The notes below the pieces were generated by a model. It made no database searches, was not told the origin of the DNA, and saw nothing but the letters and a program-made list of their open reading frames with translations. The position numbers were made by a program, and so were the translations under genes. From Pedobacter sp. (lineage in GTDB: Bacteria; Desulfobacterota; Desulfuromonadia; Desulfuromonadales; Syntrophotaleaceae): a stretch of 64,000 bases of DNA. The number at the start of each line of letters is the position of its first letter. Within the stretch, counting starts at the first letter, position 1. The stretch spans positions 96,001 through 160,000 of the forward strand of contig JBFWJC010000003.1 of NCBI GenBank assembly GCA_050253415.1, read 5' to 3'. Of the stretch, positions 7,308-44,768 are shown one piece after another.

Positions 7308-8374
7308 ATGGGTTTCTAAATTTTAGCCTTGGTTGTTTAAGGCGAAAGGGGAGGGATTTGAAGCGCATTCTCTGTTGCATGCTTTTAGGTCTGTCCATCC
7401 TGCTGACAGCTTGCGGTGATCGTTATATCGATGACCGTGCCGGGCTGATGAGCGCCGATGAGCAGGGGCGTTTGCGGATCTTTCAGGAAAAATTGCTGCA
7501 GGAACTCGACATCGAGCTTCAGGTGGTGGTGCTCGATGCCAGCCCCGGTGATCTCGACACGACGGCGGTGGAGTTGTTCGATGAGCGCGGCATAGGTAAG
7601 CGAACCAGGGGTGCGCGCGGGGTATTGCTGCTCGTCGATCCGGTCGGGCGACAGGTGCGCATGGAGATCGGCTACGACCTGGAAGGCATTTTCCCCGACG
7701 CTTTTGTCGGTTATATCGAGCAGCGCCAGATGGCGCCCTTTTTCGCCGCCGGGCGGGTCGCTGCCGGTATCGAGGCGACTGTCGAACTGGTAGTTGGCAA
7801 GGCCCTCGGGGCCATCGACGAAGGCAGTTATGCTCCTGACGAGACAGCGGGCGGTCTGGCCCATCTCTCCGGAGGGGCAGGGGCCCGCAGCGCCGTTGGC
7901 ATCGGTGACGGTGCGCCGGCAAAACCGACGCTGGATGATGCCTCCCAGTTCGGTGCCCAGCCATCCCCGCAGCAGACCCTGGCTGTTTACCTGGAAGTGC
8001 TACGCGGGCACATCAAAGATCCAAATCTGGAACTTTATTCCCCTGATACCCGTGATTTTTTCAGCAAATGGCTGGTGACCGACGCGCAGCAGGACAACGA
8101 GCGGCGCAGTCTGGAGGCCCATATCGGGCAGGGGCAGGTCTTGCAACGTGACGGGCGGGCGGTGATCCGCTTTCCGGTTAGCGAGCGCGGCTCGGCACCG
8201 TATTTCCTGGTGCGGGGGGAGGAGGGCTGGATGCTCGATTTCGCCTCTATGTGCAAGCTGGTCGGTTTCAACCACCGCAACCAGTGGCATCTGCGCAGCC
8301 TCGACCATCCCTTTATGTTTGCGTTTGAAGACTGGCAGTTTGATCAGAACGGCTTCCCGCACTCTGAGCAGTAA
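7301..8374 (+). CDS. TPM-domain lipoprotein
   Basis: Lipobox LLTAC, YIDDRAGLMS, GVLLLV..RQVRMEIGYDLEG; true start probably TTG 7358 or ATG 7379. Confidence 0.8.
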   Translation: MRDGFLNFSLGCLRRKGRDLKRILCCMLLGLSILLTACGDRYIDDRAGLMSADEQGRLRIFQEKLLQELDIELQVVVLDASPGDLDTTAVELFDERGIGKRTRGARGVLLLVDPVGRQVRMEIGYDLEGIFPDAFVGYIEQRQMAPFFAAGRVAAGIEATVELVVGKALGAIDEGSYAPDETAGGLAHLSGGAGARSAVGIGDGAPAKPTLDDASQFGAQPSPQQTLAVYLEVLRGHIKDPNLELYSPDTRDFFSKWLVTDAQQDNERRSLEAHIGQGQVLQRDGRAVIRFPVSERGSAPYFLVRGEEGWMLDFASMCKLVGFNHRNQWHLRSLDHPFMFAFEDWQFDQNGFPHSEQ

Positions 8375-9204: not shown

Positions 9205-9388
9205 AAAAAATATCCTCTAGTGTACGGCATGTTTGTGGTGACACGGGCGGTTTAGCAGTCTTCGCGAAAGATGTCAACCTGCATGGCAGTGCCAATATAA
9301 TGGGGCTTGTACTGCAACGCACTCCGTTATAACATTGGCCAGACTTTACCGGGTGGTTCCGGAATTAAATATTTGGAGAGGACATATC

Positions 9389-10171
9389 ATGAAATCGCTG
9401 CTTATTTTTATTGTTATGTTGTTTTGTGCTTCACCCTGTTGGGCCTTCCCCAAAGAAAGCTGCGGTGAGCAGCGCTGCATCGACTGTCATACTCTGACAA
9501 AGGAAGAAGCCAAATACCTGCTTGGCAAACAAGCCGACCAGGTGCTGAATATAGAGCCTTCCGAGGTGCAGGCCATGTGGGTGGTCGAGGTTGAAAAACA
9601 GGGTAAGCGTTTCCCTGTTTATGTCGATTTTACCAAGAGCTTCGTCATGCGTGGTGAGATCCTGCGCCTCAAGGACGGTGAGAATATCACCACCCAGCGC
9701 ATCGCCAGTCTCAATCGGGTCGATGTCGCCGCGATCCCTGTTGCCGACGCCCTGATCCTCGGCGATCCCAAAGCACCTAAAAAGGTTATCGTCTTTACCG
9801 ACCCGCAATGCAGTTATTGCAAAAAACTTCACGCCGAAATGAAAAAAGTGGTGAGGCTGGATCCGAGCATTGCCTTCTACATCAAGATGATGCCCCTCAA
9901 TATCCATCCCGAAGCCTACATGATCGCCAAGAGCATCGTCTGCAACCGTTCCCTGACCATGCTGGAAGAAAGCTTCGCTGATCGTCCCGTTCCGCCGCCG
10001 TTGTGCCGCGGTGAAGCCGTCGACCAGAATATCGCCCTGGCTCGCAAACTAGGATTTAATTCCACACCGACCCTGGTGATGCCCGACGGCCGGCCTTTCT
10101 CCGGCTTTCGCGATGCTGCGACGCTGCTCAAGATGCTCGATTCCAAGGTTAATATGTCTGATAAGGAGTAA
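9389..10171 (+). CDS. dsbC: DsbC-family thiol:disulfide interchange protein with N-terminal CxxCH
   Basis: Signal peptide, CIDCH, VFTDPQCSYC active site, NSTPT cis-Pro loop; GAGGA RBS. Confidence 0.85.
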   Translation: MKSLLIFIVMLFCASPCWAFPKESCGEQRCIDCHTLTKEEAKYLLGKQADQVLNIEPSEVQAMWVVEVEKQGKRFPVYVDFTKSFVMRGEILRLKDGENITTQRIASLNRVDVAAIPVADALILGDPKAPKKVIVFTDPQCSYCKKLHAEMKKVVRLDPSIAFYIKMMPLNIHPEAYMIAKSIVCNRSLTMLEESFADRPVPPPLCRGEAVDQNIALARKLGFNSTPTLVMPDGRPFSGFRDAATLLKMLDSKVNMSDKE

Positions 10172-10208
10172 GTCGGCAAGTAACGCCTGACCTTTTTATA
10201 GTTGATTG

Positions 10209-10258
10209 AAAAAGCCGCCCCTTGCGCAGAACTGTGCATGGGGCGGCTTTTTATTTTT
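10209..10258 (+). terminator. Rho-independent terminator after dsbC
   Basis: AAAAAGCCGCCCC...GGGGCGGCTTTTT. Confidence 0.8.
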
Positions 10259-10413
10259 GGTGCGTGTAGCGTGGGGTTATTCAGGTCGTTTCATTATTAG
10301 AAGGTTTGACACCTGTTAATGTGAAGGTGTACAAAAATGAAGTTTTCAGAAGCGTTGTGAGCGGAAAGTCAGGTTTTTGATCGGGTTTTATGAAGGTGAA
10401 CAAGACGCTTAAT

Positions 10414-10536
10414 AAGTGGAAAAATCATCGGGGTATTTTCCACTTTTACCCCTTTAATATCGTGATAGGTGGAAAATAGTCCATATATAATGAGTGATAT
10501 GACGGAAAATTTTCCACCTATCAACAATGTTAGGAA
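10414..10536 (+). mobile_element. Candidate integron attI site with upstream inverted repeats
   Basis: CCTATCAACAATG/TTAGGAA resembles the attI core AAC-NNN-GTT; GTT at 10529 opens cassette 1; GTGGAAAA motif occurs four times as two inverted pairs. Confidence 0.6.
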
Positions 10537-10550
10537 AACAAGGACATATT

Positions 10551-11000
10551 ATGTGCAAATTATTTGGCCTACTCTTTCTAGGTTTACTCCTATTTGGTTG
10601 TTCTGGAAATCCGACAGCAATAAGAGGTGGTGAAATAGCAAATAAAAACCTCCACAAACAAAGATCGCCAATACGAGTAATTGTAGAAGTTTTGGAAGGT
10701 GGAGTAGCTGTTATGAGGCCTGTTTGGGCCGGAGAAAAAGGTGCTAGCATCATAAACGTTGCTGATGACACTTTAAAAGCAGATATTTATAAATTATTTC
10801 AAGAAAAGTGCGGTTTTCAGAAAGCCGATCTTAAAGAGGTAAGGGTGGTTGAACATAAGCACCCTTTCTATTATGAGGTATGGGTTTTCAGTGACACGCA
10901 ATCAAAGAACGCTGACGGCACGACAGGGGTATCGCTAATTCTTAATTTTCCAGCCTCAGGAGGCACAGACATTAACTTAATTGGCAACTGTCGTTCCTAA
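10551..11000 (+). CDS. Hypothetical lipoprotein (gene cassette 1)
   Basis: Lipobox LFGC; AGGA RBS; stop codon inside the attC R'' box. Confidence 0.8.
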   Translation: MCKLFGLLFLGLLLFGCSGNPTAIRGGEIANKNLHKQRSPIRVIVEVLEGGVAVMRPVWAGEKGASIINVADDTLKADIYKLFQEKCGFQKADLKEVRVVEHKHPFYYEVWVFSDTQSKNADGTTGVSLILNFPASGGTDINLIGNCRS

Positions 11001-11097
11001 CAAGCCACTCCACCGGATGGTACAAGGAGCGGCGGTTCTCGTTAAAGTCTTTGCTTCGCCAGTGGCACAGCGCCACCGGTGAGCTATATCGTTATGT
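10995..11097 (+). mobile_element. attC site 1 (intact)
   Basis: R'' TCCTAAC, 5-nt spacer, L'' ACTCCACC ... L' GGTGAGC, 6-nt spacer, R' GTTATGT. Confidence 0.85.
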
Positions 11098-11100
11098 TTC

Positions 11101-11184
11101 CAAGTTACCCACGAAAAGTGGACACCCTCATCAATGAGGTTACTCTAGATCGAGAGGTGTCAACATGGCCAATAAGAGAAGCTT
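11101..11184 (+). mobile_element. IS3-family left-end remnant (IRL, leader, first codons of orfA)
   Basis: TTACCCACGAAAAGTGGACAC...TGAGGTTACTCT...AGAGGTGTCAACATG resembles the IS3 left end as recalled; terminal TG lost; no transposase follows. Confidence 0.65.
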
Positions 11185-11185
11185 A

Positions 11186-11261
11186 CGAATGCACTCGGAC
11201 GGCAAAAGCCGCGCCGCTTCGCTCTGTGCCGTTTCCCAGCCGGTTATGCTGAGTGTCATGT
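11186..11261 (+). mobile_element. attC site 2 (decayed, R'' missing)
   Basis: L'' AATGCACT CGGACGGC ... GCC GGTTATG CTGAGT GTCATGT (GTT mutated to GTC). Confidence 0.6.
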
Positions 11262-11319
11262 GTTTTGTAACCCTTAAAGAAGCCATCTTTACGAAAACTT
11301 AATTGACGGAGGAAGAACG

Positions 11320-11784
11320 ATGAAGCAATCGAAAAACATTTTTTTGTTAAATGCCATTGTTTTAACCGGATTGATCCTGATGTTGCCGAAATTTTCGTAT
11401 GCGCACTGCCAGATTCCTTGTGGGATTTATAATGATTATGCCAGAGTTCAATCGATGCTCGAAGATGCCGCTACAATTGAAAAATCGATAAAATTAATCA
11501 ATGACTTGTCAGGCAAATCCGATGCCCAGTCAAAGAATCAATTGGTTCGCTGGGTAATGAATAAAGAAAAACATGCCCAAAATATTATCTCTACAATTAG
11601 TGATTATTTTTTAACCCAGAGAGTTAAACAGAATCAAAAAGACTATGCTGAACGCTTGATAAAACACCATGCGGTAATTGTTTCAGCAATGGAAGCCAAA
11701 CAAAATGCTGATATGAAATATGCTAAAGCCCTAAAGGATTGCATTGAGACTCTGTTACCTTACTATCCTGAGCAAAAGCACTAA
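11320..11784 (+). CDS. sodN: Nickel superoxide dismutase precursor (gene cassette)
   Basis: Ni-hook HCQIPCGIY directly after a signal-peptide-like leader ending SYA; RWVMNKEKHA; GGAGG RBS. Confidence 0.92.
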   Translation: MKQSKNIFLLNAIVLTGLILMLPKFSYAHCQIPCGIYNDYARVQSMLEDAATIEKSIKLINDLSGKSDAQSKNQLVRWVMNKEKHAQNIISTISDYFLTQRVKQNQKDYAERLIKHHAVIVSAMEAKQNADMKYAKALKDCIETLLPYYPEQKH

Positions 11785-11791
11785 ACAGCAC

Positions 11792-11852
11792 GTATAACAA
11801 TTTGCTGCACGGGAGCGCAAAAAGCGCGCGCCCCGTGAGCAATGAGTTAGAT
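11792..11852 (+). mobile_element. attC site 3 (intact, 61 bp)
   Basis: GTATAAC-AATTT-GCTGCACG...CGTGAGC-AATGA-GTTAGAT with the unpaired base at position 4 of L''. Confidence 0.9.
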
Positions 11853-11915
11853 TGCAGAATATAAAAATAGAAAGAATAAGGATCTTGGACTTTTCAGTAA
11901 ATGGGGGAGAAGACC

Positions 11916-12356
11916 ATGAATTTTCAAATGGATCATATTGTTATCAACACTGTTGATATTAGCAAGTCGCTTCATTTCTACACGAAAATTCTTGATTTGC
12001 CCGGCGAACGGATAGAAGAATTTAAAAACAATCAAGTTCCCTTCCCATCAGTTCGAATTACAAAAGACACCATCATCGACCTTTTCCCAAAAAAACTTTG
12101 GAAAACAACAAATCCTGAAAACGTTTGCCGCCCCAACCTCAATCATTTCTGCCTCTCTACGAGTAAAAATAATTGGGAATCGCTACAGGAAAAACTTAAA
12201 GAAAACCATATTTCTATTGACGATGGCCCATCTAAACGATGGGGCGCTCACGGTTCAGGTGTTTCTATCTATTTTCGTGACCCAGATGAAAACGTGATTG
12301 AAGTTCGTTATTACGAAAATGAGGAGGTTGACCAAGCTTGCATACTCAGTTCGTAG
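11916..12356 (+). CDS. VOC/glyoxalase family protein (gene cassette)
   Basis: MDHIVINTVD..SLHFY, LNHFCL, GAHG..SIYFRDPDENVIE. Confidence 0.88.
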   Translation: MNFQMDHIVINTVDISKSLHFYTKILDLPGERIEEFKNNQVPFPSVRITKDTIIDLFPKKLWKTTNPENVCRPNLNHFCLSTSKNNWESLQEKLKENHISIDDGPSKRWGAHGSGVSIYFRDPDENVIEVRYYENEEVDQACILSS

Positions 12357-12373
12357 AATTGTAAGGGAAGACA

Positions 12374-12490
12374 ATCAAACAAACTAATCAACCTGATGGA
12401 AAATACGTCTGTGCTAATTGGTAAAACAAAACCATATTGAGGTGGTGCACACAAGGACGCGTCGCCGTCGGTTATAATGAAACGTTAGAT
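12374..12490 (+). mobile_element. attC site 4 (near-intact)
   Basis: R'' ATCAAAC, L'' AATCAACC ... L' GGTTATA, R' GTTAGAT; internal GTGC/GCAC stem. Confidence 0.75.
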
Positions 12491-12496
12491 AGCAAA

Positions 12497-12883
12497 ATGA
12501 ATTTTACTAAAACAATTACAGCATATTTGATTCTGACAATTGGCTATCTTGTAATTGCAGTAAGCATTAACAAGCCGGTCGTCGATATCGCTGCGGCTGT
12601 TTTCGTCTCATGTTTTGCATTTCTTTTGGCCAAGCCCGACATTAAAGGAGTCGCTGTTTCCTTGTTTGTCTCAACGTACCTATTTGTAAATGTCATTCTC
12701 TACACAATTGTGAAAAGCCAAGGCATTAAAAATCCAATTCTATTTATTTATTCGGAAACCACCGCAACTGAACTTGTATTCGGGACCGTCCCATTCATTT
12801 CAGGGGTTACGTCCTATCTTGCTTGTCAATGGATATCTAACCAAAAGATGAAGTCGGACGAGGACCTTCCCCCGCTAAAATAG
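12497..12883 (+). CDS. Hypothetical membrane protein (gene cassette)
   Basis: About four hydrophobic segments; ATG 6 nt after attC4; reads through truncated attC5. Confidence 0.7.
   Translation: MNFTKTITAYLILTIGYLVIAVSINKPVVDIAAAVFVSCFAFLLAKPDIKGVAVSLFVSTYLFVNVILYTIVKSQGIKNPILFIYSETTATELVFGTVPFISGVTSYLACQWISNQKMKSDEDLPPLK
12835..12860 (+). mobile_element. attC site 5 (left half only)
   Basis: ATCTAAC-CAAAA-GATGAAGT-CGGACG, then abrupt switch to an IS-like end; TATCTAAC is the exact complement of cassette start GTTAGATA. Confidence 0.75.
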
Positions 12884-12913
12884 ACACCTCAACCCAATCA
12901 GGAGGCGTATATG
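12861..12913 (+). mobile_element. Second IS3-like left-end remnant
   Basis: GGACCTTCCCCCGCTAAAATAGACACC followed by GGAGG-ATG; same layout as the 11101 stub. Confidence 0.5.
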
Positions 12914-13720
12914 GCAAATCAACGACGGGCGCTTTTCCTTTCCCATGGGGGCGGCCCATTACCGCTTCTTGGGGACAAGTCTCATGAAGAAATGGTCCAG
13001 TGTCTGAAAGAAATTGAAGCGACCATTGAAAAACCGTCGGCCATTATCATAGTAAGTGCGCATTGGGAGGAAAGTAGCCCAACCATAACTTCGGGAGCCA
13101 ACCCGGAGCTGATATACGATTACTATGGATTTCCTCCGGAGGCTTACACGATTGAGTACCCTTGCCCGGGAGAACCGTCCCTGGCTGGCCAGATAGCCAA
13201 GCGGTTTGCGGAAGCAGGTATCGATGCCAGGCTCACCGGAGAGAGGGGATTCGACCACGGCCTGTTTGTACCGCTGAAAATCATGTACCCCGAGGCTGAT
13301 ATCCCGTGTGTGCAACTGTCGCTGCTCAAGAGTCTTGATCCTGCCGAACACGTCAAAATGGGGCAAGCCCTTCAATCCCTGGGTGATCAATCGTTACTCC
13401 TCATCGGGTCCGGGTTTTCCTTTCACAATATGAACGCCTTTTTTGCACCGGACACGGATGAAACCAGGGCCATGAATGAAGCATTCGAGAATTGGCTGCT
13501 TGAAACGTGTCAAAATCCGGATCTTGAGGAAGAAGAGAGGATGCAACGACTCGTACATTGGGCGTCCGCACCTTCCGCACGTTATTGTCACCCGAGAGAA
13601 GAGCACTTATTGCCGCTTCACGTCTGCTACGGATTTGCCGCATCGGCGTGCACGGAATCCTTTGAATTAAACATCCTGAACAAAAAGGCGAGCATGTACC
13701 TTTGGGAAATCGAAGGCTAA
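12911..13720 (+). CDS. LigB/DODA-type extradiol ring-cleavage dioxygenase (gene cassette)
   Basis: LFLSHGGGP, VSAHWE, YDYYGFP, RGFDHG, GSGFSFHN, HPREEHLLPL; stop inside attC6 R''. Confidence 0.92.
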   Translation: MANQRRALFLSHGGGPLPLLGDKSHEEMVQCLKEIEATIEKPSAIIIVSAHWEESSPTITSGANPELIYDYYGFPPEAYTIEYPCPGEPSLAGQIAKRFAEAGIDARLTGERGFDHGLFVPLKIMYPEADIPCVQLSLLKSLDPAEHVKMGQALQSLGDQSLLLIGSGFSFHNMNAFFAPDTDETRAMNEAFENWLLETCQNPDLEEEERMQRLVHWASAPSARYCHPREEHLLPLHVCYGFAASACTESFELNILNKKASMYLWEIEG

Positions 13721-13827
13721 CAAGCGACTGCAACGGATTGCAGCTCTTTCGAAAGTCTGCTGAGTTTGGCAGGAGTTGTTTTTCTGTTGGGCCTAAATTC
13801 GGTTCGGCAACATGCTGCGCCGTATAG
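13715..13827 (+). mobile_element. attC site 6 (right half decayed)
   Basis: GGCTAAC-AAGCG-ACTGCAAC-GGATTGC intact left arm; right arm GCAACATGCTGCGCCGTATAG degenerate. Confidence 0.6.
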
Positions 13828-14468
13828 TGAATTGTCAAAAAGGGCGATGAAGCAAATGATGATTGCTGCGACAGCTATCTCAGCCTTGATAGGCATATCT
13901 GCCCTCTGAACGGCCCCCTCCGTATTGCGATCAAAGATAATATTGTGGTAGAGCCCTTGGGGGAAGACCACTTCGACTTATCGAAATCTCAACTTTTCTC
14001 TTTCACAATTACCTTCAAAAACTGCCTGCAGGACGATTTTTAGTGACAATCAGAAGTGTCGCTGATTTCAGCTGAAATCTTTTTCTCTGGCATAACTTCA
14101 TGCCGCAAAAAACAACGCCATATCAACACGCTCCGGTACAGAAGACACTGATAATTTTTGCTTTTTAAAGGCATGGTGGGCTTTTGGTTGAGGATACTCG
14201 TCTCCGTAGTTACCTCCAATCAGAGGCCGTAGGCGGGTCATGAAACAGCCGTTGGGTAAGGTTCACAACTTTCAATTTTTGAAAATGGTGGTCTTGCCCG
14301 ATGGCTGTTTTTTTTGAGCCGCTTCAATGTCCACAGGAGATGCAGCCAGCCTGGTTGACGGTCGGATGGTTGCACGGCCAATGATGATATCCACCTTGGC
14401 TTGAGTATTGCCAGTATATCTATGGACGGGTATCACATTGAGACTTGCTTGCATACCGAGGAGACCAT

Positions 14469-15254
14469 ATGAGGCACTTTAGATTACAAGGCAGAACCGT
14501 AATTGTAACAGGGGCTGGTCGTGGTATTGGACATGGCATTGCCATCAGGCTTGCAAAAGACGGAGCCGACGTGGTTGTCAGCGATATCAATGCCGAAGAT
14601 GTCGACAGGGTCGTGAAGGAAGTTGAGGCCTGTGGGCGCAAGTCGCTGGGGATTGTTGCGGATGTGACCAAGCGTCAAGAAGTGTATGACATGGTGGATG
14701 AGGTTGTCGATGAGTTTGGACAACTTGACGCTATGGTGGCCAACGCCGGAATCGCACAGGTGAAATCAGCTCTTGAGCTGACGGACGAGGATTGGGACAA
14801 CATCTTTGCTGTGAACGTCAAAGGCGTATTTCTGTGCAATCAAGCTGCTGCAAAGCAGATGGTAGAGCAAAAAAGCGGAAAGATCATCAACTGCGCATGT
14901 ATTGCAGCACATACGGGCCTCGCTATGTTGTCGCATTACACCGCTACCAAATTTGCCGTGCGTGGATTTACTCAGGCATTAGCCAAAGAATTGAGGCCTT
15001 TTGGCGTTCAGGTAAATGCGTACTGCCCTGGCATCGTGGAAACGGCCATGTGGGATCTTATCAATCAGGAAATGGCGAAGGAGCCTGCACTTCCCAATGG
15101 TGAGACCCTGAAACAATATACCGAGCTTATCTCTGCCGGTCGCGCTGTGACGGCCGATGACGTAGCGGCCTTTGTTGCCTACCTGGTTTCGGAGGATTCC
15201 GACTATATGACGGGACAGTCCGTAATGATCGATGGCGGGCTTATCATGAATTGA
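14469..15254 (+). CDS. Acetoin reductase / 2,3-butanediol dehydrogenase-like SDR
   Basis: TGAGRGIG, NAGIAQVK, YTATK, VNAYCPGIVET.MW, YMTGQSV.IDGG match the BudC subfamily. Confidence 0.85.
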   Translation: MRHFRLQGRTVIVTGAGRGIGHGIAIRLAKDGADVVVSDINAEDVDRVVKEVEACGRKSLGIVADVTKRQEVYDMVDEVVDEFGQLDAMVANAGIAQVKSALELTDEDWDNIFAVNVKGVFLCNQAAAKQMVEQKSGKIINCACIAAHTGLAMLSHYTATKFAVRGFTQALAKELRPFGVQVNAYCPGIVETAMWDLINQEMAKEPALPNGETLKQYTELISAGRAVTADDVAAFVAYLVSEDSDYMTGQSVMIDGGLIMN

Positions 15255-15406
15255 TAGATTCAGTTCAGATATTGAGGGCGGGCCAAGTCAGTTTGGCCTT
15301 TTTTCAGGCAGTAACAAGGCAAAAGATAGTATGGATGAACGAATTCCGGAGATATGACGGGTTTGCCTGCCAAACCCGACCAGACACCAACTAAGGAGAA
15401 CATGCA

Positions 15407-30279: not shown

Positions 30280-30360
30280 TCTTCGGTAACCCGGCTATCC
30301 CCTGGAAAGGACCCGTGGCTTTGCGTCACCGGGTTACCCCGGTTTTGCCAGTATCGGAAA
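30280..30360 (-). promoter_or_regulatory. c-di-GMP-I (GEMM) riboswitch
   Basis: Minus strand GGCAAAACCGGG-GTAA-CCCGGT-GACGCAAAGCCACGGGTCC...GGATAGCCGGGTTACCGAAG. Confidence 0.9.
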
Positions 30361-31851: not shown

Positions 31852-31935
31852 ATTATTATTTTAACGGCAAACTCACAGTGATGTGGGGACGCAAAGCCAT
31901 GGGTCCTTTTATTCAGGATCGCCAGGTTACATAAT
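31852..31935 (+). promoter_or_regulatory. c-di-GMP-I (GEMM) riboswitch
   Basis: GGCAAACTCACA-GTGA-TGTGGG-GACGCAAAGCCATGGGTCC...GGATCGCCAGGTTAC; AT-rich P1. Confidence 0.85.
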
Positions 31936-42266: not shown

Positions 42267-44768
42267 TCATTGTTTATCGGGAGCGGACTCCGGAACGACA
42301 GTCTCTGTGGCTGGTTTGGCCGCAGTTTTCCGGGGTCGGCGGGCCGGTTTTTTCTTGATGGGTTCCCCGGTGTCCGCTTCTGAGGATGCTTTCGCGGGTT
42401 CTGTTACGTCGCCAGTTGGCTTTTTAGTCGTGGTGCGACGTTTTGGGGTGGCCGCCGCTGTTTCTTTGACCGGTGTTTCATCGGTGACTTCCGTAACCGT
42501 GTCAACCGTGGCATCCGCGGCTTTTTTCGCAGTGCGTCTTGGCCGGGATCGCCGGGCCGCAGGCTTGACGGCCGCCGGTTCTTCAACAGCGCTCTCCTGG
42601 GTCACGGGTGCTGCTTCGGTGCCAGCTGGCAGTGGTGCTTTATCCGTTTCCGCCGGTTCGGTTTTTACGCGACTCTTGGCCGGGGTCCGTTTTCTGGCCG
42701 CCGGTTTAACCTCGGGCTTAACCTCCGGTTTAACCTCCGGTTTAACCTCCGGTTTAACCTCCGGTTTAACCTCGGGCTTAACCTCAGGTTGCGCTTCAGG
42801 TTGCGCTTCAGGTTGCGCTTCAGGTTGCGCTTCAGGTTGCGCTTCAGGTTGCGCTTCAGGTTGCGCTTCAGGTTGCGTAATCGCTCTTTTGGCCGCAGGT
42901 TTCCGCCGGCGGGGCCGAGGTCTTCTCGCCGGTTTTTCCGGTTGTTCGGCTGTAACCGCTGCATCCTCTGCAGTGGCCGTGGCTATTTCCGTAACGGGTT
43001 CTTGGGCTATATCCGCCTCGGCGGGGATTGTTCCCGAAGTTACCGTTGCGGGTTGGCCCTGTTCTGCACCCTCGGGCGAGACAGGCGTTGCTTCACCGGT
43101 GGTGTCTGCTGCAACCTCCTGGCCGTTAGCATTCTCTGCGGAAGAGGATTTGCGGCGTCTGCGCGGACGGCGTTTGCGTTTTGCCGGCTTTTCTTCGACG
43201 TCGGCTTCTTCGGTTGGCTGGATATCGTTAGATTCGGCCATGACGTGGCTGGCTTCGATGTAAGCGGTAGCCTGTGCCGATTCTTTTTCACGTTTGTGAA
43301 ATTCGATCTCGCCCTGGCTATTTAAGTATTCCGGGCAAGCTTTGATATGGATACGGATATCATTGGTTTGCTCAATGTTTAATAGTTCCGGGCGTTTATT
43401 GTTGAGCAGGTAGCTGGCAACATCCAGTGGGACCATCGCTTCTACCCGCCCGACATGCCCCTTCGCGAGTCCCGCATGAATTCTGCGTAAAAAGGATAGG
43501 GCCTGCGCCTCAACCGTCTTGATTTTGCCACTGCCGTTGCAGTGGGGACAGACTTCAAAAGACGCTTCGGCGAGAGCTGCCTTGATACGCTGGCGGCTCA
43601 TTTCAAGTAATCCGAACTGGCTTATGCGACCGATGCTGACCCTGGCTTTGTCCATTTTCATGGCTTCCTTGAGGGTCTTTTCCACTTCGCGAATATGCTT
43701 GCGGTCACGCATATCGATAAAATCGATGACCACCAGCCCCCCAAGGTCACGCAGACGTAACTGGCGTGCAGTCTCGATAGCTGCTTCAATGTTGGTTTTG
43801 TAAGCGGTTGCTTCGACTCCTTGCTCGCTGGCCATTTTTCCGGAGTTGACATCGATGGCCACCAGGGCTTCGGTACTGTCGATGACGATAGACCCACCAG
43901 ATGGAAGCATGACCTTGTTTTTACTGATCGACTCGATCTGCTCTTCAATCTGATAGCGGGCGAATATAGGTCGGCGCTCCTGGTGCAGTTTGACCAGTTC
44001 GGCGTATTCGGGCATCACTTCCTGGAAAAATTCGCGTGCTTCAGCGGACACCCGGGCATCATCCACCAGTACTTCGTCCATATCATCGCTGAAATAGTCG
44101 CGGATGGAACGGATAACAAGATTGGATTCTTTGTATACCAGGGCAGGTGCCTTGGTGGTGCTGGAAAGGGTTTGGATCTTGTTGTACAGGCGCAGCAGGT
44201 AGTCAACATCACGTTTGAGATCGGTTTTTTTCTGGGTGCTGCCGGCGGTTCGCACGATATAGCCCATGTCCTCAGGGATTTCCAGGCTATTCATGAGTTC
44301 CTTGAGTTTTTTCCGATCCGATTCCTTTTCGATTTTACGTGAGATACCTTTGGTGTCGGATTCCGGCATCAGGACCATATACCGCCCCGGGAGAGAGAGG
44401 TAAGTAGTCAGGGCTGCACCCTTGGTCCCACGCTCTTCCTTGACGATCTGTACCAGGATTTCCTGTCCGCGTCTTAGCAGGTCGTTGATTCGCGGTCTTT
44501 TTCCTTGTTCAGTGCGCCCTTCGGCGGCTTGGAAAAAAGACGGATGGATTTCTCCAACCTGAAGAAATCCAAGGCGTTCGCTGCCATAATCGACAAAGGC
44601 CGCCTGGAGTCCCGTCTCGACGCGGGCTACGACGGCCTTGTAAATATTGCCTTTGGTTTGTTCTTTGCCGGATATTTCAATATCCAGCTCTGTCAGGGTC
44701 CCGTCTTCAACAATGGCAACCCTGTGCTCCTCAGGATGAGTAGCGTTGATGAGCATCTTTTTAGTCAT
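42267..44768 (-). CDS. rne: Ribonuclease E
   Basis: MLINAT..EE.RVA, KGNIYK, AAFVDYG, IDVNSG, LRDLGGLVVIDFIDM, CPHCNG; long disordered C-terminus. Confidence 0.96.
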   Translation of the reverse strand: MTKKMLINATHPEEHRVAIVEDGTLTELDIEISGKEQTKGNIYKAVVARVETGLQAAFVDYGSERLGFLQVGEIHPSFFQAAEGRTEQGKRPRINDLLRRGQEILVQIVKEERGTKGAALTTYLSLPGRYMVLMPESDTKGISRKIEKESDRKKLKELMNSLEIPEDMGYIVRTAGSTQKKTDLKRDVDYLLRLYNKIQTLSSTTKAPALVYKESNLVIRSIRDYFSDDMDEVLVDDARVSAEAREFFQEVMPEYAELVKLHQERRPIFARYQIEEQIESISKNKVMLPSGGSIVIDSTEALVAIDVNSGKMASEQGVEATAYKTNIEAAIETARQLRLRDLGGLVVIDFIDMRDRKHIREVEKTLKEAMKMDKARVSIGRISQFGLLEMSRQRIKAALAEASFEVCPHCNGSGKIKTVEAQALSFLRRIHAGLAKGHVGRVEAMVPLDVASYLLNNKRPELLNIEQTNDIRIHIKACPEYLNSQGEIEFHKREKESAQATAYIEASHVMAESNDIQPTEEADVEEKPAKRKRRPRRRRKSSSAENANGQEVAADTTGEATPVSPEGAEQGQPATVTSGTIPAEADIAQEPVTEIATATAEDAAVTAEQPEKPARRPRPRRRKPAAKRAITQPEAQPEAQPEAQPEAQPEAQPEAQPEAQPEVKPEVKPEVKPEVKPEVKPEVKPEVKPAARKRTPAKSRVKTEPAETDKAPLPAGTEAAPVTQESAVEEPAAVKPAARRSRPRRTAKKAADATVDTVTEVTDETPVKETAAATPKRRTTTKKPTGDVTEPAKASSEADTGEPIKKKPARRPRKTAAKPATETVVPESAPDKQ
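42702..42877. repeat. Two-block 12-bp coding tandem repeat in rne (QPEA x7, then QPEV/KPEV x7)
   Basis: CGGTTTAACCTC units followed by AGGTTGCGCTTC units. Confidence 0.95.

Follow-up and report, generated by a model that had tools for sequence, protein, structure and literature searches.

We describe an integron cassette array, at positions 10406-13827 of a 64-kb stretch of DNA (the window; positions 96001-160000 of contig C3 in genome G000, 4.1 Mb in 18 contigs), that begins with an attI site of its own and contains no integrase gene, intI. It lies between a dsbC-like gene with its terminator and a gene for a short-chain dehydrogenase (SDR). The array is one of four in this genome that are headed by an orphan attI, that is, an attI without an adjacent intI, and the genome encodes one intact integrase, IntI, on contig C1. 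We think it probable that this IntI uses the window array in trans. The locus is best read as a CALIN, a set of clustered attC sites with no integron integrase as the term is used in Cury et al., 2016 (PMC4889954), which carries its own attI and a promoter-like region, is serviced in trans now or was until recently, and is partly eroded. More than one attC site lies on the same strand within a short distance and no integrase gene is nearby, as in a CALIN, while the combination of intI and attC in one locus that marks a complete integron is absent here.

The site at the head of the array (10406-10531, + strand) consists of four RTGGAAAAT/ATTTTCCAY boxes in alternating orientation, followed by a core, TATCAAC-AAT-G|TTAGGA, with the crossover at 10529-10531; the inverted repeats I2, I5, I14 and I15 fall within it. 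Of the 117 nt that precede cassette 1 (10416-10531), 98 (84%) are identical to the attI region beside intI on C1, taken as the stretch from the intI start codon to the initial cassette there. An alignment of 22 copies from G000 and its relatives, nine of them adjacent to intI and 13 not, recovers the four boxes, a conserved TGCTATAAGG block and the core TATCAAC-AAT-GTT. Conservation stops exactly at TGTT in 22 of the 22 copies, beyond which each copy has a different sequence (for example GTTAGGA, GTTGGAC or GTTGAAA), and the conserved positions and boxes are alike in orphan and intI-adjacent copies. Homologous sites adjoin intI in ten cases, namely the C1 copy of G000 and nine copies in relatives (two each in G005 and G003, one each in G006, G011, G015 and G016, and, in part, one in G002); in the intI-adjacent copies intI is divergent, with its start codon ∼25 nt away. 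The window copy, unlike these ten, is not beside intI. In public loci with a related IntI, RTGGAAA/TTTCCAY boxes, separated by diverged spacers, again lie upstream of intI: this is so in 12 of 13 loci where the IntI identity is 65-97%, as against 0-1 boxes in 12 loci where it is at most 58% and 0-1 boxes in control stretches inside intI. Because of the homology beside intI, the end of conservation at TGTT and the way in which the boxes track the IntI clade, we identify the element, from its sequence, as the attI region cognate to this IntI clade; the boxes are predicted to be binding sites for IntI. A candidate attI had been noted here in a preliminary description of this DNA, made without database searches, and its homologues beside intI in G000 and at nine places in relatives bear that proposal out.

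The same evidence speaks to a different origin of the array, in which IntI placed the cassettes one by one at an attG-type site and the repeats upstream are unrelated to attI. Insertion of cassettes outside att sites, giving rise to small CALINs, is proposed in bioRxiv 10.1101/2022.09.11.507474; at this locus, however, the likeness of the upstream 117 nt to the intI-linked attI and their end at the same G|TT make such an origin highly improbable.

Within the attI, and reading into the cassettes, lies a promoter-like site (10462-10491, + strand; GTGATA-18-TATAAT, 10/12), a candidate for the cassette promoter Pc. Its -10 region is conserved as TGCTATAAGG in most attI copies, and the promoter inside attI is predicted to be active.

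A profile search of G000 with TIGR02249 gave a single match above the cut-off, the IntI at C1:1750302-1751246 (447.6 versus 265 bits), which spans model positions 2-315 in a 333-aa open frame without stops and is 78-97% identical to IntI of public metagenome-assembled genomes titled Pelobacter sp. or Desulfuromonadales. This integrase belongs to an integron (C1:1750302-1759659) whose array extends for 8.4 kb to the end of the contig and contains 15 intact attC sites. Contig C3 has no TIGR02249 match, the 12 places matched in the genome being elsewhere, and a tblastn search of the 64-kb window with the C1 IntI gave a best E-value of 1.5, so no intI remnant was detected there. Both results agree with the earlier observation that neither intI nor a remnant lies upstream of the array, and the integrase for which a genome-wide search had been suggested exists as one full-length copy, on C1. 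Two C-terminal fragments of intI were also seen, at C2:470321-470557 (95.7 bits) and at C4:260659-260784 (50.5 bits); the former lies ∼1 kb upstream of same-strand attC matches (C2:471387-473668), and the latter adjoins a copy of the X element described below.

In all, attI is present five times in G000. One copy is beside intI, three are long orphans (the window copy together with C1:335760-335885 and C2:119437-119564, 88-89% identical) and one is a short orphan (C1:7562-7640, - strand), in which the core TTATCAACAATGTT is joined to box 1 and a single TTTTCCAC box, and which heads an attC cluster at C1:3833-7129. All five are followed by co-oriented attC sites. The attI copies differ from each other by 11-19%, and the four that are not beside intI have neither intI nor a detectable remnant of it nearby.

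The attC sites were assessed with a covariance model, R1, which is distinct from that of IntegronFinder and was built from 13 attC sites of the intI-linked C1 array, with the R-box and L-box helices annotated; a duplicate and the paralogue of the third site in the window were excluded. In the R1 alignment the helices are paired in 92.6% of cells, a proportion reached by 0 of 500 shuffles (slid controls were 19-40% paired), and 6 of 12 pairs have changed on both sides. When both strands of the window were searched, R1 matched three places and no more at E<=10, each of them on the + strand and all within 1.5 kb: attC1 (10995-11097, 103 nt, intact; 65.2 bits, with E 2.5e-13 for the window and 1.6e-11 for the genome), attC2 (11792-11852, 61 nt; 24.6 bits, E 1.9e-3) and attC3 (12374-12490, 117 nt; 27.7 bits, E 3.5e-4). 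The last of these is eroded relative to its paralogue, and its R'' reads ATCAAAC where paralogues have ATCTAAC; attC1 shares 85-87% identity with attC sites of two relatives in the genus. In the cmsearch alignments all three sites have an R'' with a terminal AAC, an R' with an initial GTT, L''/L' pairing and the bulged base. Unconstrained folding of the bottom DNA strand gave the canonical hairpin, with R-box, internal loop and bulged L-box, for attC2 only (z -4.9; none of 200 shuffles reached its stability); the corresponding z values were -2.1 for attC1, -0.1 for attC3 and near 0 for the decayed sites.

Six attC sites had originally been proposed. The three main ones are returned by R1 to the base. 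A fourth, first placed at 11186-11261, is marginal: in the decayed site at 11180-11261 (+ strand) the L''/L' halves are recognizable and both R boxes are mutated, and with filters off it is the fourth-best R1 match in the 4.4 kb from 10100 to 14500 (10.1 bits, E 0.45), which is not significant on its own. The remaining two found no support in the model. At 12834-12900 (+ strand) inspection of the sequence reveals a truncated or decayed site with a clear R''-L'' half and no GTT R', and 12835-12860 gave no R1 match in the same filter-free search. The degenerate attC-like end of the last cassette (13715-13827, + strand) has an R''-L'' half, GGCTAAC AAGCG ACTGCAACGG, that resembles the family, and 13715-13770 scored 5.2 bits (E 6.9). 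The layout common to the three main sites is missing from these two and marginal at 11180-11261. Three attC sites are therefore solid, one is plausible, and two are recognizable only by eye, as R''-L'' halves. The suggestion that differences among the sites point to diverse origins did not hold in the sense of foreign ones, as all three types also occur in the genome's own intI-linked array.

Two other attempts at site recognition were set aside. An ad hoc scanner for R'', R' and L boxes found the three main sites but scored background equally, and was replaced by the covariance model; among its false positives is a tandem array of 12-nt, GGTTTAACCTCC-like units at 42704-42794 of the window. 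A reading of the attI itself as an attC-like, foldable site was unsupported (R1 9.2 bits, E 0.72); TAAC stands 5 nt before box 1 in some orphans.

Cassettes that have been integrated as circles are expected to begin with bases complementary to their own R'', and such complementarities had been quoted for this array. They are present: cassette 1 (10530-11091, + strand; an open reading frame (ORF) plus its attC) starts with GTTAGGA and has TCCTAAC as its own R'', with 4/4 outer bases complementary, and the start GTTAGAT of the cassette that follows attC3 complements ATCTAAC at 12835. The same rule holds across the genome. For the four outer bases of 41 G000 cassettes, pairing of the start with its own R'' is perfect in 23, 3/4 in 10 and 2 or fewer in eight, as compared with one, 15 and 25, respectively, for the control pairing with R' of the same site. 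The scores of the window cassettes are 4/4, 2/4 (for the interval that spans the insertion sequence remnant and the decayed site) and 3/4.

Further evidence of mobility comes from the VOC/glyoxalase cassette (11847-12485, + strand), copies of which are present in three arrays of G000; the other two, 95-96% identical, are at C1:1756547-1757219 and C8:112942-113583. Aligned in pairs, the copies are highly identical from GTTAGAT to ...CGTT, with breaks at G|TT on both sides, and the neighbours upstream and downstream differ in all three arrays. To judge from the alignments, these breakpoints are the footprint of integrase-mediated cassette movement.

The array has also changed in content between species. 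In G006 the LigB gene that ends the array forms one contiguous block with the degenerate attC and the SDR gene, 79-89% identical to the window. Upstream of LigB, however, G006 has a short-form attI that has lost boxes 2-3, then two unrelated cassettes, followed by an intact attC (44.4 bits), which directly abuts the LigB cassette where the window has half an attC (12834-12900). The dsbC-like gene of G006 lies at the end of a different contig, which breaks off within it, and this comparison therefore covers the right side of the locus. In G001, LigB and SDR are again contiguous, preceded by two N stretches and an unrelated chemotaxis-receptor-like gene. LigB is 86-89% identical in G006 and G001. 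It is absent from G005, a same-genus relative closed in one contig, in which the dsbC-like and SDR genes are ∼690 bp apart (SDR 90% identical) with no attI, cassette, LigB or attC in the interval. In the comparison of the dsbC-SDR interval that had been proposed as a check for cassette turnover, the locus holds different cassettes in one same-genus relative, and the interval is empty in another. As LigB is kept contiguous with SDR in relatives while the cassettes upstream differ, the sequences mark it as an old cassette fixed in the lineage, with attI-proximal cassettes that vary between species. On the opposite flank of the locus, the membrane-protein gene to the left of the dsbC-like gene lies at a distance of 10-13 kb from it rather than adjacent in the same-genus relatives G003 (C15) and G004 (C1), so the neighbourhood of dsbC is variable on both sides.

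Among all 17 genomes of the family in the collection, attI-like copies were found in 12, and in none of 14 genomes of other families in the order. Orphan copies occur in eight of the 17 (G000, G002, G005, G006, G007, G008, G009 and G013), and orphan-attI arrays of like architecture are present in G005, a closed genome. An R1 attC match lies within 2.5 kb downstream in five of ten orphan-attI loci of relatives; of the five loci that lack one, two are shorter than 750 nt. G005 carries two orphans 8.7 kb apart, which match at 115/116 positions and have an upstream flank of at least 300 nt in common; the first cassette after each is different. The orphans of G005 and G002 have their flank in common, with 94/116 positions kept in attI versus 32/58 in the flank. 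A different arrangement is seen in G008, where one of two attI copies is followed by a tyrosine-recombinase-like ORF reading in the direction of the cassettes (C57:293600-294359; 300 aa, TIGR02249 positions 5-179, 122 bits), so that intI is not divergent there.

The left boundary of the orphan sites is sharp, 10-13 nt before box 1, with the intI start codon of linked copies at about -25. Upstream of several orphans there is a further element of ∼160 nt, here called X, which comprises a promoter-like site (TTGACA-17-TATTTAT), GGAGGGGACATG and a strong terminator hairpin. It is clear at C1:335590-335745 (L010:1330-1490), at C1:∼7700-7850 and also at the loci in G005 and G002, partial at the C2 attI copy and faint in the window (10285-10350); copies are also present away from any attI, at C6:187629-187781, C2:681698-681854 and C4:260819-260979. 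Since its short ORFs are not conserved, X may be a family of small-RNA genes; its match in Rfam is below threshold (BcKCsr2, 20.8 bits versus a gathering score of 40). One route to orphan sites, recombination by IntI at a left pseudo-core (TATCAGCAG|GTGG, similar to TATCAACAAT|GTT), was rejected, as the orphans retain sequence to the left of that point.

An array of this kind could be an inert fossil: a second complete integron that came to lie behind the dsbC-like gene, or was copied there, and whose intI was cleanly deleted, leaving the array to decay with no recombination in trans. We regard this as unlikely, although several findings fit it, and most of these also weigh against use in trans. 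The array is eroded. Half of the six proposed attC sites are not significant in R1, two being degenerate and one truncated; attC3 is weakened (27.7 bits versus 48.2 for its C1 paralogue); and of the window sites only 10995-11097 is among the 46 matches that R1 gives genome-wide at E<=0.01. The array is also interrupted by the left end of an IS3-family element (11100-11185, + strand; ∼85 nt including the first orfA codons), which is 93% identical to C7:24089-24168, part of an intact orfA/orfB element at C7:24089-25340; the stretch 11100-11185 is not a cassette gene. In G006 the orthologous attI has lost ∼70 bp. The closed genome G009 has an orphan attI and no intact intI, so orphans can persist as fossils, and the two orphans of G007 still have the initial intI codons, a sign that in this lineage intI was lost by deletion.

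The fossil explanation fits less well with other features of the orphans. In the window there is no remnant of intI, and at the other two long orphans of G000 a native terminator lies 20-55 nt from attI and leaves no room for one. The orphans have kept all four boxes and the core, and the attI of the orthologous orphans in G005 and G002 is better conserved than the flank that they share. Moreover, G000 and G006 have different cassettes next to attI, as do the two near-identical orphans of G005.

Use of the window attI in trans by the C1 IntI, which we favour, has further points to contend with. The window VOC copy is 4-5% diverged from the other two, so it was not recently transferred from either, and homologous exchange between repeats of attI or attC could also account for differences between arrays. 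The candidate Pc is a consensus match only, in a region where nine such matches were found versus 7.4 expected, and a look-up of the stretch in RNA data returned no RNA run. Finally, the genome is apparently metagenome-assembled (it is in 18 contigs, and the best run holding the stretch is a metagenome), and the co-residence of C1, with intI, and C3, with the window, therefore rests on binning.

That the array, or its junction with dsbC, is itself a metagenomic chimera produced by assembly or binning is nonetheless very doubtful. The genome is fragmented, several arrays are at contig ends and repeated cassettes that are 95-96% identical could mislead an assembler; the attI copies, however, are far enough apart to be paralogues rather than collapsed repeats. 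Logan contigs of run X1, which may be the source sample, cover 9300-11137, from dsbC through attI and cassette 1 to attC1, and 12429-15300 with 0 differences; among the records listed, 11892-12292 is covered only by a paralogous Logan contig with seven differences, and parts of the array uncovered in runs X2-X4 were not counted as evidence. In addition, G006 has the same arrangement from attI to LigB and SDR, and the orphan-attI architecture recurs in closed G005. In run X2 we noted contig joints 10532->12378 and 12403->12862, which have short sides and 90% likeness and come from a metagenome; the first is in a high-depth contig that joins the attI end to sequence resembling the R'' of attC3, its shorter side being 37 nt, and may belong to the attI copy of a related organism.

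Taken together, the data lend support to the earlier proposal of a CALIN-type array with a retained attI, which has lost its integrase or else depends on one acting in trans, in that the array is real, its attI is homologous to an intI-linked one and a full-length IntI is encoded elsewhere in the genome. In integrons in general, IntI excises cassettes as circles by recombination between attC sites. By extension, the C1 IntI of G000 would excise cassettes in this way from any of the arrays and would re-insert the circles, by attC x attI recombination, at the G|TT of any of the five attI copies. The promoter-like site inside attI would then transcribe the first cassettes, and each orphan attI would provide an extra 'first position' for cassette expression. 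In the window array the inner end, LigB, is fixed, and only the attI-proximal part is likely to be still exchangeable. A broader reading is that of a distributed integron in this Desulfuromonadales lineage, with one integrase serving several promoter-bearing attI landing pads and with orphan attI spreading as a module, sometimes together with X. The shared VOC cassette with its G|TT ends, the different first cassettes at orthologous or near-identical orphans and the conservation of the orphans all argue for it; we nevertheless put it forward tentatively, and give it less than an even chance of being right.

The array comprises five ORFs, all on the + strand (10527/10551-11000, 11320-11784, 11901-12356, 12497-12883 and 12911-13720). 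They had been described as five co-oriented and mostly AT-rich genes, and the co-orientation and low GC hold (GC is 36-41% across ∼10300-12850 versus 50-66% in the flanks), with the exception of the fifth, LigB, at ∼50-55%. The ORF of cassette 1 (10551-11000, listed from 10527) encodes a predicted lipoprotein, judged by eye from its N-terminus, and has no Pfam match. The second gene (11320-11784) encodes a nickel superoxide dismutase, SodN (Pfam Sod_Ni, 3.1e-36); by inspection of the translation, its nickel-hook motif HCQIPCG follows a 28-residue hydrophobic leader that resembles a secretion signal, in contrast to the short propeptide of SodN in Streptomyces. Then come the VOC gene (11901-12356; Pfam Glyoxalase, 1.3e-11), a gene for a small hydrophobic protein without a Pfam match (12497-12883) and that for a LigB-type extradiol dioxygenase (12911-13720; Pfam LigB, 1.9e-31).

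Both flanking genes are native and read in the same direction as the array. On the left, the gene for a DsbC/DsbG-like thiol:disulfide protein (9335-10171; Pfam Thioredoxin_2, 1.5e-17) is kept at 76-93% identity in same-genus relatives, and is followed by a terminator-like hairpin with a T-run (10209-10252, + strand; inverted repeat I1, with 21-nt arms that are 90% complementary, then TTTTTATTTTT). On the right is the SDR gene (14469-15254; Pfam adh_short, 4.2e-63). At gathering thresholds, a search of the whole window against Rfam assigned none of the array features to a family. It gave only two c-di-GMP-I riboswitch aptamers, elsewhere in the window, at 30281-30358 (- strand) and 31856-31934 (+ strand), with scores of 66.4 and 61 bits; they point away from each other, ∼1.5 kb apart. 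An E-value search of 10100-14500 gave one weak match, STnc560 (E 0.14), on the terminator hairpin.

In comparison with known systems, the window array resembles a CALIN in having at least two co-oriented attC sites with cassette genes, no intI nearby and a complete integron elsewhere in the genome. It differs in starting with a full attI homologue and a promoter-like site, whereas CALIN cassettes are described in PMC4889954 as cut off from Pc. With sedentary chromosomal integrons it shares the G|TT crossover of attI, cassettes bounded by attC, the complementarity of start and R'' and cassette functions that are mostly unknown or accessory; it departs from them in having no intI in or near the locus and in a ratio of five attI to one intI in the genome, where PMC9024848 speaks of 'typically one' attI near the integrase. 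The intI-linked integron of G000 itself has the attI family (84%), the attC types and the VOC cassette (95%) in common with the window array, but possesses intI and 15 intact attC sites in 8.4 kb, while the window array is without intI and partly eroded. The delta-attI-type cassettes of mobile integrons treated in PMC12901181 likewise place attI-derived sequence away from intI; as presented there, however, these are partial attI sequences that form the ends of cassettes in mobile arrays, as opposed to a complete attI heading a chromosomal array.

CALINs are about as common as complete integrons, and their origin and function are debated. Integrase loss, rearrangement and insertion at non-att sites are among the origins proposed in bioRxiv 10.1101/2022.09.11.507474, and CALINs are presented as ancestral remnants in a preprint on Xanthomonas (10.1101/2025.06.18.660453). 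Part of the reason for the debate is that attI sites, known from a few integron classes only, are for that reason never looked for; according to PMC4889954 and PMC9024848, attI is poorly described or unknown beyond class 1-3 integrons and is not searched for in CALINs. Among the papers that our literature search listed, none spoke of orphan attI or of attI copies, which is weak evidence that the arrangement is unpublished, the listing having been dominated by irrelevant matches to 'attitude'. While CALINs and chromosomal integrons are known kinds of system, a CALIN headed by attI, with five attI to one intI and recurrent in a family, appears to be undescribed.

The results show that the attI of a clade of chromosomal integrons can be defined by comparison, from four boxes, a core and conservation that ends at G|TT. 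If the orphan sites are unused, they would form a dated fossil series of how integrons lose their integrase. If they are used in trans, one integrase would run several platforms for capture and expression, which would change how cassette expression and 'silent reservoirs' are counted. Should the distributed reading prove true, many CALINs would gain an origin and a function unlike those implied by a view of them as 'integron debris', and several cassettes could be expressed as 'first' at once.

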